This document shows positions 9,093 to 15,469 of a stretch of DNA of 64,000 nt, piece after piece (within the stretch, counting starts at the first letter, position 1; each line of letters begins with the position of its first letter). The DNA comes from Vulcanimicrobiales bacterium (GTDB lineage Bacteria; Vulcanimicrobiota; Vulcanimicrobiia; Vulcanimicrobiales; Vulcanimicrobiaceae): the NCBI GenBank assembly GCA_038215615.1, contig JBBQQR010000003.1:32001-96000 (forward strand), in the 5' to 3' direction. Below the pieces are notes generated by a model that did no database searches, was not told where the DNA came from, and worked only from the letters and a program-made list of their open reading frames with translations. The position numbers and the translations under genes are program-made.

Positions 9093-9883
9093 GCTATGCC
9101 TCGCTGAAAAATTCGCTTGATCTCCGTCGCGCGCCCGGAGTCCACATCGATGATTACGACCGCCGCACAAAACTGTTTCGTGCCGGTCTTCTCGACTGAA
9201 AACCTATCCGAAAATCCAGTGATGAAGCGATCTAAGACGGCTTCCGACTCCATTCCGATGATGCCTTCGGTCGGCCCGGTCATGCCAACATCACTGATGT
9301 AGGCGGTTCCGCCCGGCAGAATATGTTCGTCCGCGGTCTGAACGTGCGTGTGCGTCCCGTAGACCGCCGCGACTTTGCCGTCTAAGTACCGGCCGAGTGC
9401 AACCTTCTCGCTCGTCGCTTCGGCGTGCACATCTACTACGATGACGCGCGCCTGCGCGCTCAGGTTTGCAAGCGCCGCATCCACGGCCCGAAACGGATCG
9501 TCCACCGGTGGCATGAACGTCCGGCCCATCACGTTTATGACTCCTATCGTCAAGCCATTGGCCGAAAACGTACCGGTGCCCCGGCCGGGAACGCCCGGCG
9601 GGTAGTTGACCGGACGGATGACTCGGTCACTCGATTCCAGGTACGTCTTGAAGTCGCGCTTGTCGAGAATGTGGTTTCCGCTTGTGATGAAATCGACGCC
9701 GGTCTCGAACATTTCTTCGGCGGTCAGCACCGTCAAACCGAATCCGCCGGCAGCGTTTTCTCCATTTGCGATGCACGCGTCGATCTTGTATTGATCGCGC
9801 GCCATCGGGAGGCAGCGTTTGAGCGTTTCTCGTCCCGGCGATCCGACGACGTCGCCCACCAGGAGCAGATTTAGTCTCTTTAT
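9089..9883 (-). CDS. ymdB: YmdB-like metallophosphoesterase (TIGR00282); start non-canonical (ATA 9883, CTA 9874 or CTG 9868)
   Basis: LNLLLVGDVVGSPG, NGENAAGGFG, TSGNH, HAEATSEK, GTHTHVQTAD, DVGMTGP. Confidence 0.93.
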   Translation of the reverse strand: MKRLNLLLVGDVVGSPGRETLKRCLPMARDQYKIDACIANGENAAGGFGLTVLTAEEMFETGVDFITSGNHILDKRDFKTYLESSDRVIRPVNYPPGVPGRGTGTFSANGLTIGVINVMGRTFMPPVDDPFRAVDAALANLSAQARVIVVDVHAEATSEKVALGRYLDGKVAAVYGTHTHVQTADEHILPGGTAYISDVGMTGPTEGIIGMESEAVLDRFITGFSDRFSVEKTGTKQFCAAVVIIDVDSGRATEIKRIFQRGIA

Positions 9884-10425
9884 CGGCGGGCCGGAGCCTT
9901 TTTCTTTCGCGATTTCAAGAAGTACACGAGCACATGTTTTTCCTCACGGAAGCCGACAAGACTCTTTGACTGCGCGGGATCCCGTAACGCTTCGACCGCG
10001 CACTCGACCAGTTCATCCTGCGCCACCGGATCCTCATCGGGATGTTCGTCGGGTACGGTGTTACGCACCAGCGCCGCTCCAAAGAGCTGCGCGAAGAGTC
10101 CGGTCAGCATGCCCAGTTCGTCTTTGGTGAAGGTATCGAGGTCGCGGCTCACATGCACGAAGCTCAGCGCCCGCTCGGATTCGCACTCCACGCTCAAGTC
10201 GCCGCCACCGCCCGAGAGTGCCTGGAAACCCTTGACATGCGCTTCGATCTCCTCGCCGATCGCGCGTTGAGTCTGCCGGTCCATCCGCTGCCCGATGGCA
10301 AAGGTGAACCGCACCATGCCCTCGCTGGGCATCGAGCGGATAGACGCAATCTCAGGATAGCGCACGAGCAGCGCGCACACCAAATTGACGGTATCGCTAT
10401 TCTCGACGGGCGGCCGGGCGGTCAT
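9880..10425 (-). CDS. Conserved hypothetical protein
   Basis: LLVRYPEIASI...LVGFREEKHVLVYF; GAAGGAAG SD; heads the ymdB operon. Confidence 0.75.
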   Translation of the reverse strand: MTARPPVENSDTVNLVCALLVRYPEIASIRSMPSEGMVRFTFAIGQRMDRQTQRAIGEEIEAHVKGFQALSGGGGDLSVECESERALSFVHVSRDLDTFTKDELGMLTGLFAQLFGAALVRNTVPDEHPDEDPVAQDELVECAVEALRDPAQSKSLVGFREEKHVLVYFLKSRKKKAPARR

Positions 10426-10593
10426 GATCGATGCTTCCTTCGTACCTGTCTTTGGGCTGTGAATCGCTGGGGGGTCCGGTCTCTTAGACATCCGCTCCAG
10501 AGCCCCCCTTTGCTATTCACGCCCTCTCCAACCAACAGCGAGGGGGGTCCGGTTGCCGGGGGGCCGCCACCGTCCCTCGCGAAGCCCCCAGCC

Positions 10594-11139
10594 GTGAGCA
10601 AACGCCTGCCGCTCTGGCTCGCCGCAGTCGTCCCATCGATGGCGGCCGGCCACGTCGCGGGCTACGCGCTATCGGGACTAAGCTCGGCCGACGGCCGGCA
10701 TGGCTGGCTCTCGCCCGCCCTTGAAGTCTGCGGAGCCGCGCTGATCGGCTTGGGCGCGCTCATCATCGCGAGCACCTTGCTGCGCGCCGGCGTCTTCCGT
10801 CGATCGCAGATCGAAAGCTCGGTGTTGGCGCTGGCGCCGCGGTTGGCGGCATCGCAGCTCGTGCTCTTCGTTGCGGCAGAGACATTCGAAGGGCGCAGCA
10901 TCACGCCGGCCGGCATCGCCACGCAGATCGTATCGGCGCTGCTCGCCGCGTATATGCTTTCGCTATTCAGCAGAATCATCGAACGCTGTATCGCCGGTGC
11001 CGCCGAAGCCGGCAGCTATCTCGACCGTCTTGCCGCGGTCACCGCGGCCTTCTCGCTCATCGAATCCGCGCCGCGATCCCTTGCGCTTTTCGCAAGTGCA
11101 GGCAACAGCCGTTTTCAGCGACCTCCTCCGTTCGCGTAG
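10594..11139 (+). CDS. Membrane leader protein with C-terminal RPPP (RAPP-like) motif
   Basis: GTG start; several hydrophobic segments, AAGHVAGY and GRHGW His motifs; ends RFQRPPPFA*. Confidence 0.75.
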   Translation: MSKRLPLWLAAVVPSMAAGHVAGYALSGLSSADGRHGWLSPALEVCGAALIGLGALIIASTLLRAGVFRRSQIESSVLALAPRLAASQLVLFVAAETFEGRSITPAGIATQIVSALLAAYMLSLFSRIIERCIAGAAEAGSYLDRLAAVTAAFSLIESAPRSLALFASAGNSRFQRPPPFA

Positions 11140-11171
11140 TCATTACGCTCTTGACTACACTCAAACGGAGG
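11125..11171 (+). promoter_or_regulatory. SD-sequestering hairpin (translational attenuator)
   Basis: CCTCCGTT (11125-32) pairs with AACGGAGG (11164-71); inner stem GTAGTCA (11136-42)/TGACTAC (11152-58). Confidence 0.7.
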
Positions 11172-11178
11172 TATTCGC

Positions 11179-12948
11179 GTGTTGCAACGCATTTTTGCAG
11201 CCGCAGTTCGCGCGACGTGCGCGACTGTGGCGATCACGGCAGCCCTCGCCGGCCGGGCTGAAGCCGTTCCCGTCTTTGCCAATGGGCAAGGCGTCTCGTG
11301 TCAAACCTGTCACACCACGTTCCCGGGCATGACGCGCTACGGCATGATGGTGATGATGACGAATTTTCAAATTCTCGACCGTCACTCTCAAGACCAAGCG
11401 CTGCCAATCGCAGTGCGTATGTACGTGGATTCGGTGCTCGGCACGGGAGATCAAAAGGGATACACGCAGCTCGGCGATCTCTCGCTGCTGGGCGGCGGTT
11501 TTCTCGGAAGAAACTTCACGTGGTACGGCGAGCAGCACATCGTCGATTCCGGCGTTATCGGCCAAACCGAACAGGTGTGGCTTTCCTGGAACGGCTTGTT
11601 CGGCGGCACCAACTCGCTGCAGGTCGGAAAATTCCACACGCCGTTCCCGTTCATGCCGGCGCACGCGTGGACGCCTTCAGGCTACCTCCTAGCATTACAA
11701 ACCACAGGGCAGAACGATTTCAATGCCGCTGAAGCGCGCTGGGGCGTTGCCTTTTCCGGCATGAGTAACGAATTCATGTACAACGCTTCGTACCTCACCG
11801 GAAGCGGTCCGACGGGCGAAGCGCTCAACTTCAACAAGAACTCGCATCCCCGCGCATACGACTTCAACGTCTCGTATGGCGGTATGCAGATTCCGTGGGA
11901 GCTGGGATTGGTGGCGATGCGCGGCGACGCGCCGGTGGTCGATCCGGACTCCGGCGATTTTCTCTTTAGCGATCAGTGGACGCGCCAGGGAGCCTATCTC
12001 TCGTATCAAGACAGCAAGTGGCACTTTCAAACGATGTACTATCGCGGAAACGACACACAGCCGGACGTCGATACCCTGAACACCACATCGAACGGCTTCT
12101 TCTTCGAAGCGGCCCGCGATTTCGCCAAAGACCACGTGCTGGTGCGGTACGACGTCGCCTCGAGCGATTCGCTCGACCGGCAATACCTGGTGGACGTTTC
12201 ACACAACTTCCAGCCGAATCTCGCGCTGATCGGTGAAGTCCGGATGGTGCCGGCGCAAAAACCGCAGATCATGTTTAGGCTTGCGTATGCCGGACCGTGG
12301 GAAAACGGACGGCGAATTCTTTCCAACGGACACGACGTCTCCACAAACTTCACAGCGCAGCCGCAGTTGCATCCTGCGCAAACGCTCCCGGGTGCCGTGG
12401 CTTCGCCCCTTCCCGCAACGCCGGCCGGCGGCGACGCAAACAATGGGGCGCAACTCGTGCAATCCAACGGCTGCGCGGGCTGTCACGGTGCGGGCCTGAA
12501 GGGCGGGCGAATCGGACCCGTGCTGTTCGGCATCGAACACCACATGTCGAACGATCAGATCGCGGACTTTATCATACATCCGCGCGCGCCGATGCCGAAC
12601 TTCGGTTTCAACACCGCGCAAGTCTCGGACATCGTAGCGTATCTCACGTCACTCGACGGCGGCATCAACAATACTGCGCCTGTCGTCACGTTCTCGCCGG
12701 CGGCGCCGACCGATTTCGCAACGATTAGCGTGACGTTCCCGGGAACTCCGCCGGAAAGCGTCCGGGTTCTTCCGGTCATGCGCATGGGAACCAGCACGCA
12801 CCACACGGCGATGGTCGAATTGCAACCGCTGCCGTCGGATCCGCACACGTTCACCGGCCGCGTCGCATTTTCGATGGGCGGCCCCTGGATCGTACACATC
12901 CAATACGGCCGGCAGGAGTTGGACGTCCCGCTCAACATCGGGACGTAA
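11179..12948 (+). CDS. Cyc2-like cytochrome c-porin fused to a second cytochrome c and a YtkA/FixH-like domain
   Basis: Signal peptide then AVPVFANGQGVSCQTCHTTFPGMTRYG; aromatic beta-rich middle; GCAGCHG...GPVL...MPNF cyt c; C-terminal FSMGGPW. Confidence 0.75.
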   Translation: MLQRIFAAAVRATCATVAITAALAGRAEAVPVFANGQGVSCQTCHTTFPGMTRYGMMVMMTNFQILDRHSQDQALPIAVRMYVDSVLGTGDQKGYTQLGDLSLLGGGFLGRNFTWYGEQHIVDSGVIGQTEQVWLSWNGLFGGTNSLQVGKFHTPFPFMPAHAWTPSGYLLALQTTGQNDFNAAEARWGVAFSGMSNEFMYNASYLTGSGPTGEALNFNKNSHPRAYDFNVSYGGMQIPWELGLVAMRGDAPVVDPDSGDFLFSDQWTRQGAYLSYQDSKWHFQTMYYRGNDTQPDVDTLNTTSNGFFFEAARDFAKDHVLVRYDVASSDSLDRQYLVDVSHNFQPNLALIGEVRMVPAQKPQIMFRLAYAGPWENGRRILSNGHDVSTNFTAQPQLHPAQTLPGAVASPLPATPAGGDANNGAQLVQSNGCAGCHGAGLKGGRIGPVLFGIEHHMSNDQIADFIIHPRAPMPNFGFNTAQVSDIVAYLTSLDGGINNTAPVVTFSPAAPTDFATISVTFPGTPPESVRVLPVMRMGTSTHHTAMVELQPLPSDPHTFTGRVAFSMGGPWIVHIQYGRQELDVPLNIGT

Positions 12949-14363
12949 TGCGGCGGTCGTCCTTCCTGATGGCGAGCGGCGGCGCGATGATCGTCGCCGC
13001 CTTGCCGCCGCTTTCCGAACGCGGGCGTGCGAGCGAGTTGGTGCAGTACACGCTCACTGCCGGCCCCGTTCGTTTCTCGCCGGTTCCCGGCCTCAATTTT
13101 GCCGGTCTCGGCTATAACGGCACTATTCCCGGTCCGCTTTTGCGCGTGGTTCACGGGCAGAAGCTGCGCGCGAGGTTCATCAACCAAACCGGACAAGGCT
13201 CGACCATTCACTGGCACGGCATGATCTTGCCGAACAAAATGGATGGATCGGAAGGGGTGACGCAGCCCGCCGTTCCGCCGGGCGGATCGTTTCTCTACGA
13301 GTTTTCACCCGAACCGCCCGGCACGCGCTGGTATCACGATCACGTCAGCGATGGTTTGCTGCGCGGACTCTTCGGCATGATTATCGTTGAGGATCCGCGC
13401 GACCAGCGCCCCGATGCGGAATTTGTGCTCGTTTTCCACGACGTTCCGAAAATGGCCACGGTTCAACCAGCGATGATGGGAGTGGGCAACGGCCCGATGA
13501 CCGATCCAACCGGTTCGCCCGAGCTCATGCAAATGTCCGACGACAAGATGGGCGACGAGGTCGCGTTCAGCGCGCATTGCATCAACGGCGCTTCATATCC
13601 GGATACCAAACGGCTGGCCGTAAAAGTCGGCCAGCACGTGCGTCTGCGCATACTCAACGCCAACCCGACGCAAACGCGCTACGTCCGGCTTGCCGGACAC
13701 CGCCTGATCGTCACGCATAGCGACGGCAATCCGCTTCCGCGGCCCGTGGAAGTCGACGCGCTTCGCGTGGGAGTCGCAGAACGGTACGACGCATGGTTCG
13801 AAGTCAGTGAGCCCGGCGCATGGCTGCTGCAAGGCCTTTCGAGCGACCCGCTCGCGTTCGAGCAGGCCGCCGTGATGCATACTCCGGGAATGGAAAACGC
13901 TCCGCCGCTCAGCAGCCCGCAATCGCTCGAAGGCGTGGACTATTTCACGTACGTGAAAGCCGGGGGAGCGGGAACCGCGACGCCGGCGCAGCGCGGGAAA
14001 CAGTACGATTTTATTTTGGACGACGGAAAATACGGCAGTTCGCGCTGGACGATCAACGGAAAGACCTATCCGAATACGCCAAGGATCGACGTGCACCGCA
14101 ACGATCTCGTCACCGTCCGTTTCACCAATAAGACCGATATGGACCATCCGATGCACCTGCACGGCCACGTTTTCGAAGTGACCGAAGTTGACGGGATCCC
14201 GCTCGCGCGGCCCCTGCCGAAAGACACCTCGCTGGTGCGTGGGAACGGAGGGACGCTGAGCTGGCGTTTTCGTGCGGACTCTCCCCCCGGCCGCTGGCTG
14301 CTGCACTGCCACAACGCGATCCACATGATGGACGGCATGATGACGCTGGTGCAGTACGGATGA
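12948..14363 (+). CDS. Multicopper oxidase, Tat-exported
   Basis: MRRSSFL Tat motif; IHWHG, WYHDH, HPMHLHGH, HCHNAIHMMDGM. Confidence 0.95.
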   Translation: MRRSSFLMASGGAMIVAALPPLSERGRASELVQYTLTAGPVRFSPVPGLNFAGLGYNGTIPGPLLRVVHGQKLRARFINQTGQGSTIHWHGMILPNKMDGSEGVTQPAVPPGGSFLYEFSPEPPGTRWYHDHVSDGLLRGLFGMIIVEDPRDQRPDAEFVLVFHDVPKMATVQPAMMGVGNGPMTDPTGSPELMQMSDDKMGDEVAFSAHCINGASYPDTKRLAVKVGQHVRLRILNANPTQTRYVRLAGHRLIVTHSDGNPLPRPVEVDALRVGVAERYDAWFEVSEPGAWLLQGLSSDPLAFEQAAVMHTPGMENAPPLSSPQSLEGVDYFTYVKAGGAGTATPAQRGKQYDFILDDGKYGSSRWTINGKTYPNTPRIDVHRNDLVTVRFTNKTDMDHPMHLHGHVFEVTEVDGIPLARPLPKDTSLVRGNGGTLSWRFRADSPPGRWLLHCHNAIHMMDGMMTLVQYG

Positions 14364-15469
14364 TGATTCTTCAGGCGCTGGAGCTGGCTGCGGGCATGTT
14401 TTGGCAAGTCGCCTGGAGTCTGGTGCTCGGTTTCTTTCTTTCGGCCGCGATTCAAACGCTGGTCTCGAAAGAGCGCATGACCGCGCAGCTCGGCCGCAAC
14501 GGCGTGCGCGAAATCGCGCTCGCAACCGTTTACGGTGCGGCGAGCTCTTCCTGTTCGTACGCCGCCGCGGCGATGAGCAAGTCACTCTTCAAAAAGGGCG
14601 CCGGATTTATTCCCTCGCTCGCGTTTCTCTTCGCATCGACCAATCTCGTCGTCGAGCTCGGCATCATTTTGTACCTGCTGATGGGATGGCAGTTCACTGC
14701 AGCGGAGTGGATCGGGGGCGTTCTGCTGATCGCGATCATGGCGCTGATCGTCAAAGCGACGTATCCCGCGGCGTTGATCGCGGAAGCTCGCCGTCATCTA
14801 GACGAGGCCACCGGCGAGGACGAAACCGTCGCCGGTGAAACATTTTGGGACAAACTGCGTAATCCGCAGACCCCGGTCACGATTGCGCAGACATTCGTGA
14901 TGGACGTTTCCATGCTGTGGAAAGATTTGGCAGCCGGGTTCTTGATCGCCGGCGCACTTGGCATTTTCGTGCCCGCCGGCGTGTGGGGCACATTCTTTCT
15001 GCATGGCGCGCCCGCGGGAGTTCAAATCGTCGCCAACGCGATCGCCGGACCGCTGGTGGCGATCGTTTCGTTCGTCTGCTCGATCGGCAACGTTCCGATG
15101 GCGGCGATCCTATGGGGGAGCGGGATCAGTTTCGGCGGCGTCTTGAGTTTCTTGTTCGCCGATCTGATCGTGTTGCCGCTGCTCGACGTCTACCGGCGCT
15201 ATTATGGCTTGAAGATGGCCGCCTACATCGGCGCCGTCTTTTTCGTGACGATGGTCGCGGCTGGGATCATCATGCAGTACGTCTTCGCAGCGTTCGGGGC
15301 GGTCCCGCATCCCAATCCGCATATCCGCACCGAACTCTCGCTCTTTGCGATCAACTACACGTTTTGGCTGAACCTCGCACTTGGCGCCCTGGCGATCGCG
15401 CTGTGGTACGTGAACGTCAAACATCCGATGTCGCACAGCTGCCCCGCTCACGAGGGCCACGCCCACTAA
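14360..15469 (+). CDS. Permease (ArsP/DUF318-like), probable metal transporter
   Basis: SSSCSYAA, FVCSIGNVP, multiple TMs, His-rich tail HPMSHSCPAHEGHAH. Confidence 0.85.
   Translation: MMILQALELAAGMFWQVAWSLVLGFFLSAAIQTLVSKERMTAQLGRNGVREIALATVYGAASSSCSYAAAAMSKSLFKKGAGFIPSLAFLFASTNLVVELGIILYLLMGWQFTAAEWIGGVLLIAIMALIVKATYPAALIAEARRHLDEATGEDETVAGETFWDKLRNPQTPVTIAQTFVMDVSMLWKDLAAGFLIAGALGIFVPAGVWGTFFLHGAPAGVQIVANAIAGPLVAIVSFVCSIGNVPMAAILWGSGISFGGVLSFLFADLIVLPLLDVYRRYYGLKMAAYIGAVFFVTMVAAGIIMQYVFAAFGAVPHPNPHIRTELSLFAINYTFWLNLALGALAIALWYVNVKHPMSHSCPAHEGHAH

Follow-up and report, generated by a model that had tools for sequence, protein, structure and literature searches.

Why does a membrane protein at the head of a copper-type oxidase operon end in three prolines, and why do the codons of these prolines complement the following gene's Shine-Dalgarno sequence (SD)? 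The question is raised by a locus in a 64,000-nucleotide (nt) stretch of Vulcanimicrobiales bacterium (assembly GCA_038215615.1, contig JBBQQR010000003.1, positions 32,001 to 96,000 of the forward strand), which is called here the window and is numbered from its first letter. The protein has 181 amino acids (aa), and we consider it reasonably probable that it serves as a regulatory leader acting in cis. It would be an inner-membrane protein of four helices (N-in/C-in), and the RF-x-RPPP near its C-terminus is a putative ribosome arrest sequence. The leader would thus probably be a translational switch built into the operon, and switches of this kind have been described since 2022. The elements on which this proposal is built are the following:

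10594..11139, + strand: leader gene, GTG 10594 to TAG 11137-39, encoding the predicted 181-aa four-helix membrane protein
11110..11130, + strand: putative arrest motif R173-F174-Q-R176-P-P-P179, invariant in 20/20 loci
11125..11132, + strand: anti-SD CCT-CCG-TT (CCTCCGTT), formed by the last two Pro codons and the 2 nt after them
11136..11158, + strand: inner hairpin GTAGTCA 11136-42 / TGACTAC 11152-58, 7 bp, including the TAG stop
11164..11171, + strand: SD region of the gene that starts at GTG 11179, AACGGAGG, 7 nt upstream of this start

The end of the leader and the hairpin

The initial annotation of this DNA described a 181-aa membrane open reading frame (ORF) with the motifs AAGHVAGY and GRHGW and the end R-P-P-P-F-A-stop, an exact complementarity between CCT-CCG-TT and the next gene's SD, and an inner stem of 7 bp over the stop codon. 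All of this was borne out by direct reading. The ORF 10594-11139, the first gene of the operon, has four hydrophobic segments and ends in SRFQRPPPFA-stop, CCTCCGTT is the exact reverse complement of AACGGAGG, and the arms of the inner stem are those listed above. The motif is encoded by CGA 11119-21 (Arg176), CCT 11122-24, CCT 11125-27 and CCG 11128-30, followed by TTC, GCG and TAG, and an additional stem, GCGA 11118-21 with TCGC 11175-78, closes the structure up to the start codon.

Folding of 11100-11200, a check proposed with that annotation, gave a minimum free energy (MFE) of -36.2 kcal/mol, compared with -22.2 +/- 2.9 for 200 dinucleotide shuffles (z = -4.82), and 0/200 shuffles were as stable. 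The anti-SD was paired in both the MFE and the centroid structures, and the pairing probability between the SD and the segment running from the Arg codon to the stop was 1.0 at this locus. The hairpin matched no Rfam family. Its reading as an intrinsic terminator was ruled out by the search for U-tracts and intrinsic terminators, in which 0 terminator-like sites were found.

With three consecutive prolines and a stall-promoting residue at position -1, the RPPP of the leader has the composition of an XPPP stalling sequence. In E. coli, as described in PMC4176338, RPPP (Arg at -1) is the strongest XPPP stalling context and is under-represented. In a crude genome scan, the sole other coding-looking candidate for a C-terminal RxPP was a 421-aa open frame on the - strand of contig C1 of genome G000, which ends FAQRRGPPKPQRGRIH and carries RGPP 8 residues from its end.

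Conservation of the motif and of the pairing

Homologues were searched in 61 related genomes; the leader was present in 22, and 20 loci were analysed. Three weak partial matches (L021, L022 and L024) were left out of the locus set, and one locus from an unpublished genome (L020, genome G030) was included, with no claim depending on it. RF-x-RPPP was kept in 20/20 of these Eremiobacterota loci, at 31-100% identity and with 0-9 residues following the motif, while the 30 residues before R173 were otherwise highly variable. Arg176 is encoded by CGA, CGC, CGT and CGG across the loci, so that selection acts on the peptide and not on the RNA alone. CCT makes up 7% of the Pro codons genome-wide and 8% of the first codons in Pro-Pro pairs, and in the motif it made up 27 of the 40 codons for the first two prolines; CCTCC was present in 18/20 loci (17/19 without L020).

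The length of the leader was 179-183 aa in 18/20 loci, the exceptions being L020, which has a loop insert, and L004 (genome G006). In the latter a 1-nt insertion ahead of the usual TAG moves the stop, and the leader is extended by 6 codons (RPPPFAVVLPSS) and ends at a TGA within the hairpin, as a real variant or by an assembly error. The stop of the leader was TAG in 15/20 loci versus 31% of the long ORFs in the genome, and in many loci this TAG lies within the inner stem; the excess is not an independent count, because the 20 loci are related.

The pairing was scored in partition-function folds between the five core bases of the SD and the Arg-to-stop segment, a probability of at least 0.5 being taken as paired. 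By this score the SD pairs with that segment in 19/20 loci, and an inner stem over or directly after the stop recurs in relatives with different sequences. As a synonymous control, 200 recoded versions of the last codons were made for each locus, following the codon usage of the genome; the observed pairing ranked within the top 5% of these controls in 11/20 loci and within the top 10% in 17/20. The locus-specific fit is a stronger test than synonymous recoding. Among 14 non-redundant loci, each 5' arm with its own SD gave -16.8 kcal/mol versus -13.9 for cross-locus combinations (0/20000 permutations), and the extensions of the helix were matched from locus to locus, for example GUU/AAC, GC/GC, GG/CC and GAUCGGC/GCCGAU. 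In a MAFFT alignment examined column by column, 84% of the cells were paired versus 38-58% in slid registers. RNAalifold, run on the 14 loci, returned the invariant CCUCC/GGAGG core only and no covariation. The CCT enrichment and the locus-specific complementarity show selection on the RNA. As both the motif and the pairing turned out to be conserved in homologues, the arrest-leader interpretation is supported by comparative evidence at the sequence level.

To what extent is this arrangement found outside the close relatives? When a profile of 18 sequences was run against 1.84 billion representatives, 132 matches were obtained, and 123 of them carry RxPP in the last 20 residues (44 RPPP, 40 RAPP, 36 RGPP and 3 RSPP); the nine matches that lack the motif are mostly fragments. 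The two groups of matches carry these cores:

Close group, 46 matches: RPPP 39, RAPP 3, RGPP 0, RSPP 0
Distant group, 86 matches: RPPP 5, RAPP 37, RGPP 36, RSPP 3

The core always lies 0-14 residues from the end. In most of the distant proteins the hidden Markov model match spans the membrane domain only (approximately residues 10-140), and hhalign aligned the close homologues (alignment A1) with the distant ones (alignment A2) at 99.6% probability over columns 1-141; since the homology match is confined to the membrane domain, the C-terminal motif constitutes independent evidence. The invariant H, Y, H, Q, E-x-x-E and R-x-P-P are also present in A2, and the distance from the second Glu of ExxE to the core Arg is 74-79 residues in 42 close matches and 76-86 residues in 74/75 distant ones.

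A search of 201 genomes of the phylum with A2 gave matches in 36, re-found the leader 10594-11139 at E 4.5e-18, and revealed further subfamilies ending in NRPPP, ERAPP, NRAPP, GRAPP and KRGPP. In these other subfamilies the SD paired with the Arg-to-stop segment in 13/17 loci, with a poor automatic choice of the SD core in three; in one locus CCCCCC is paired with a GGGGGG SD. One match (L054) was spurious, lying inside a 1122-aa frame, and was dropped, and another locus (L050) has no downstream gene under the rule used. Used as single queries, the proteins P0094 and P0168 gave no match in the genome contigs.

Two regions with conserved positions stand out in the membrane domain:

10642..10701, + strand: conserved His region, G19-H20...Y24 in predicted helix 1 and D33...H36 in the first outward loop
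10855..10890, + strand: Q88...F92...E96-x-x-E99 at the outer end of predicted helix 3, invariant in A1 and A2

The two His motifs correspond to residues 17-24 (AAGHVAGY) and 34-38 (GRHGW), and the H, Y and H of this region are invariant in A1 and invariant or nearly so in A2. The complete invariant set of A1 consists of G19, H20, Y24, D33, H36, Q88, F92, E96, E99, A115 and A119, together with R145, G170, R173, F174, R176 and P177-179. CxxC is absent, and there is a single near-invariant Cys132. The charge pattern around the four hydrophobic segments is consistent with N-in/C-in, and an AlphaFold2 model based on the 18-sequence alignment (pLDDT 72) placed helices at H8-26, H37-64, H77-99 and H105-154. 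This model had no Foldseek match in the PDB at E<=0.001 (best E 2.1). The leader matched no Pfam family at E<=0.01 and no NCBIfam family, and its protein atlas matches were unnamed clusters only, from Vulcanimicrobiota and Actinomycetota. By these searches the leader represents a new, unannotated family, in a superfamily without a Pfam family.

Upstream, a gap of approximately 100 nt rich in G/C tracts (10492-10593, GAGGGGGGTCCGG...GCCGGGGGGCC) separates the leader from a divergent neighbour gene (9880-10491) of 203 aa with no Pfam family. A sigma-70-like promoter was looked for on the + strand upstream of the leader and none was found, and no obvious SD precedes GTG 10594.

Downstream genes, proposed mechanism and alternatives

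Three genes downstream of the hairpin are proposed to be regulated by it:

11179..12948, + strand: 589-aa secreted haem protein, with N-terminal CQTCH and a C-terminal cytochrome c domain (PF13442)
12948..14363, + strand: multicopper oxidase (PF07732, PF07731, PF00394)
14360..15469, + strand: ArsP_1-type permease (PF03773, E 4e-61), whose start overlaps the stop of the oxidase gene

The multicopper oxidase has a partial match to TIGR01480 (copper_res_A), below cut-off, and the permease is distantly like the SO_0444 Cu/Zn efflux transporters (NF033936, E 1.7e-15, also below cut-off). The haem protein had been called Cyc2-like in the initial annotation. Cyc2 is a fused cytochrome-porin, with a beta-barrel of 16 strands behind the haem domain. 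The Cyc2 motif is AXPXFAR[Q/K][T/Y] 5 aa before a single CXXCH, with PXL 4 aa after it (PMC8406198), and the protein reads AVPVFANGQ-GVS-CQTCH-TTF-PGM. Thus the N-terminal CQTCH and AXPXFA stood, and the rest did not: the protein lacks R[Q/K][T/Y], has a spacing of 3 and not 5, and carries PGM in the place of PXL. There is also a second haem site, in the C-terminal cytochrome c domain, and the protein can be described as loosely Cyc2-like from its sequence. In a sister order (L222 in genome G038 and L223 in G040) it is split into a 396-aa part with the N-terminal haem site and a 202-aa cytochrome c (PF13442); given these two separate genes, the 589-aa protein looks like their fusion.

A homologue of the haem protein follows the leader in 18/20 loci (18/19 without L020). 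The order leader, haem protein, multicopper oxidase was found in 6/7 relatives scanned downstream, an eighth locus has genes of the same sizes, and in genome G027 a helicase follows. One leader (L224, genome G019) is followed by a 337-aa secreted protein of unknown family, CopC, and a CopD-cytochrome c fusion, which is unusual. Other subfamilies precede CarboxypepD_reg/Plug (TonB-type) receptors, LytR_cpsA_psr (LCP) proteins or unknown secreted proteins of approximately 300 aa. An RGPP member from an uncultured actinomycete precedes DUF1775 (YcnI) and then CopC-CopD, and RAPP members from soil metagenomes precede an unannotated secreted, C-terminally anchored protein, with a CopC-CopD gene further downstream in one locus. 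Copper is the commonest theme of the neighbour genes (multicopper oxidase, CopC/CopD, YcnI), although not the sole one. The members linked to LCP genes (L045, L046, L047 and L052, from Eremiobacterota g39 and relatives) end in IGERAPP or IGNRAPP directly upstream of those genes; they lack the two conserved His and keep METxEQ. An LCP gene is an unexpected target for an arrest leader.

The mechanism that we propose is as follows. The ribosome would pause while its P site holds the second Pro codon and its A site the third, covering CCUCCGUU and the 5' arm of the inner stem. The hairpin, which otherwise hides the SD together with the sequence up to the start codon, could therefore not form. With the SD open, 30S subunits would initiate on the operon of the haem protein, the multicopper oxidase and the permease. 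If the pause were short, termination would take place 3 codons later, the hairpin would refold and the operon would stay low. How long the ribosome pauses would probably be determined by the nascent membrane domain. In the stalled state, helices 1-3 would be in the membrane and helix 4 approximately 50-70 residues from the peptidyl-transferase centre, and therefore just inserting. As the signal we prefer a metal, most likely copper, which would be bound by the outward-facing cluster His20/His36/Glu96/Glu99 and would reduce the pull by which the stall is normally released, as the CutF model has it. Elongation factor P (EF-P), for which the genome carries efp (PF01132, E 1.3e-22), would shorten the pause.

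Several observations weigh against this proposal. The recoded controls already average a pairing probability of 0.68-0.79 in the close loci, and therefore much of the pairing is automatic when PPP sits near GGAGG, and codon choice sharpens it; the observed pairing exceeds 95% of the controls in only those 11 loci. In the exception among the 20 loci (L012) the SD pairs with codons further upstream, and in the other subfamilies the pairing is absent or weak in L040, L044, L046 and L049. The column-wise covariation in the extension of the helix is modest, with compensatory change in two pairs only, and its score was equalled by 10/500 shuffles. PPP stalls are normally relieved by EF-P, which this genome encodes. 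The CutF tail alone gave no stall in a LepB reporter, as reported in PMC9973294. The metal signal is the weakest part, as the subfamilies found before LCP genes do without the two His, and the TonB-type receptor contexts would need the opposite regulatory logic.

Could the protein simply be a stable inner-membrane component of the haem protein and multicopper oxidase system, either an ordinary subunit or a protein that handles metal? RPPP would then be a structural or interaction motif, and the hairpin would tune coupling or protect the mRNA with no regulated stall. The length of 181 aa, long for a leader, the good conservation of a four-helix domain with His and Glu, and the largely default pairing of PPP codons with GGAGG all fit this explanation. 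We regard it as improbable, since the same domain and tail head unrelated operons (haem protein and multicopper oxidase, TonB-type receptors, LCP, YcnI-CopCD), the tail varies only among RPPP, RAPP, RGPP and RSPP, all of them known arrest cores, and the selection described above acts at the RNA level.

The arrest leader may also sense something other than a metal, either the capacity for membrane insertion and secretion (Sec/YidC, proton-motive force) or EF-P and proline status, and would in this way couple the production of envelope proteins to how the export machinery is faring. Among the first downstream genes with a readable family or N-terminal leader, all look exported or envelope-related (haem-porin-like, Plug/CarboxypepD_reg receptors, LCP, YcnI), the model places helix 4 at what would be a force-sensitive distance from the putative stall, and the LCP-linked subfamily keeps ExxE and helix 4 without the His pair. 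Besides, RPPP is described as belonging to the EF-P-sensitive class, unlike RAPP and RGPP (PMC4176338; PMC12992588). Against this, the monitoring substrates described in PMC10987492 control machinery genes (secA, secDF, yidC) and not cargo, copper genes recur in three subfamilies, and the invariant His/His/Glu/Glu set is typical of metal ligands, and we judge sensing of this kind unlikely. That the stall acts on transcription, the paused ribosome blocking Rho loading or termination between the genes with the hairpin being secondary, is how CruR is reported to work (PMC9426467), but it is very unlikely here, where the spacer is 39 nt (24-66 nt across the 20 loci) versus 162 nt in cruR-bfrG, the hairpin directly masks both the SD and the start region, and no intrinsic terminator was found.

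Keeping the metal-responsive translational switch as the preferred explanation, a wider reading can be outlined, which as a whole we offer tentatively and think possible at best. In it, an ancient four-helix sensor scaffold (His...His...Q-F-ExxE), placed at a fixed distance from the interchangeable cores RPPP, RAPP, RGPP and RSPP, would have radiated in Eremiobacterota and soil Actinomycetota into nascent-chain sensors that use their own Pro codons as anti-SD to switch on different envelope and metal regulons. The RPPP version would be tunable by EF-P, unlike the EF-P-refractory RAPP and RGPP, would integrate a periplasmic metal signal with translation status, and would control an outer-membrane module of haem protein and multicopper oxidase that oxidises extracellular metal (Cu, possibly Fe or Mn).

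Relation to known arrest leaders

One of the nearest known parallels is CutF of Rhodobacter capsulatus (cutFOG, DUF2946), which is likewise the first gene of a multicopper oxidase operon (PMC9973294). In CutF, PPP also lies two residues before the stop (GPPPRL, compared with RPPPFA in the leader), and a stem-loop covers the following gene's SD; the stall is proposed to melt the stem-loop so that the oxidase is made, and function is described as needing the PPP, the stem-loop over the cutO SD, and EF-P (PMC9973294; 10.1101/2025.02.05.636593). The differences, as far as CutF is described in these sources, are considerable. CutF has 118 aa, a cleavable Sec signal peptide, CxxxC and the Pfam domain DUF2946, whereas the leader has 181 aa, four helices and no CxxC; in the leader it is the Pro codons themselves that form the anti-SD, and for the CutF stem-loop an intergenic position is described; and the first regulated gene is here the haem protein and there the oxidase.

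CruR (Bp2923 of Bordetella pertussis, DUF2946) resembles the leader in being a metal-sensing leader with RxPP three residues before its end, in the fixed spacing of CxxC to RAPP, comparable to that of ExxE to Arg in the leader family (PMC9426467), and in its position upstream of an outer-membrane receptor (TonB-dependent transporter), as in several Eremiobacterota subfamilies. Its arrest is reported as demonstrated (PMC12992588). It differs by having RAPP, CxxC and a signal peptide, by acting through Rho-dependent termination over a 162-nt spacer, and by the lack of an EF-P role. The leader shares with the DUF2946 leaders a C-terminal RPPP plus 2 residues at the head of a metal operon (multicopper oxidase, permease). 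Membership in DUF2946 was rejected, as PF11162 matched 0/18 family members at E<=10 and neither CxxC nor CxxxC is present. The contrast with CruR and CutF drawn in the initial annotation, a polytopic protein with no CxxC, therefore held. The size of the leader and its four hydrophobic or helical segments also place it outside the CutF survey type (Sec signal peptide, <150 aa), and the fixed spacing from sensor to arrest motif runs from ExxE to Arg in place of a CxxC-type motif.

If the proposal is true, nascent-chain sensing of the kind known from CruR, CutF and the 2025 Streptomyces leaders extends to an uncultured phylum and to a polytopic sensor with His/Glu instead of Cys ligands, its RPPP core bridges the polyproline and RAPP classes of stalling sequence, and its target, an outer-membrane haem protein plus multicopper oxidase, is new. 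The natural swaps of RPPP, RAPP and RGPP on one scaffold would allow the study of how core identity and EF-P set the strength of the stall. An annotation rule would also follow for operons regulated at translation and not at transcription: a small membrane ORF ending in RxPP, with its Pro codons paired to the next SD.

SecM, MifM, ApdA/ApdP and the RQH family share with the leader a membrane or secretion signal and a C-terminal arrest sequence of the R-x-P-P type, the stall freeing the downstream SD (PMC10987492; PMC10951233). As described there, their targets are secA, secDF or yidC; most of them are short proteins that have one signal or transmembrane (TM) segment, and none has P at core position 2. 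The RQH core is given as (R/Q/H)-(A/G/D)-(P/G/S)-(P/G) near the C-terminus (PMC10987492), and the R-P-P-P of the leader lies outside this set by its Pro at position 2; at the corresponding place its homologues carry RAPP (40), RGPP (36) and RSPP (3), and these three are listed among the arrest cores by Fujiwara et al. 2024. Arrest peptides of this class are characterised by a stall at which the P site is occupied by the third codon of the core.

Polytopic RAPP/RGPP arrest leaders before metal genes were already published in 2025 (PMC12992588). In that work, Fujiwara et al. described small membrane or secretory proteins with RAPP/RGPP near the C-terminus, encoded upstream of TonB, YcnI, PCu(A)C and PepSY genes, and leaders of S. 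lividans that arrest in vitro, four of which are predicted to have 4 TM segments (SLIV_18480, _27375, _33595 and _33605). These 4-TM leaders and the TM-type upstream ORFs before YcnI are likewise polytopic, with a C-terminal arrest core and metal-related genes downstream, and conserved His residues are proposed as a copper site; the distant members of the superfamily described here also precede YcnI-CopCD. The core differs, being RPPP here, with RPPP mentioned 0 times in the main text of PMC12992588.

In Streptomyces sp. MMG1121 (L215, 386-1249, + strand; L216, 2072-2701, - strand), both DUF1775/YcnI genes of the genome are preceded by membrane proteins ending in RRGPP plus 7-9 residues, one of which has a His/Met-rich loop. 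The YcnI-upstream leader probably belongs to the same type as the 4-TM leaders of the 2025 publication. Homology to it was rejected on hhalign probabilities of 1.8% to A2 and 0.4% to A1, and the A2 profile had no match at E<=0.01 in the MMG1121 genome among the 150/300 candidates scored. By sequence comparison these proteins are analogous to the leader and not detectably homologous. With respect to the known switches, what differs in the present system is the polytopic His/Glu sensor, the RPPP core, the use of the Pro codons as anti-SD, and the haem protein and multicopper oxidase as target.

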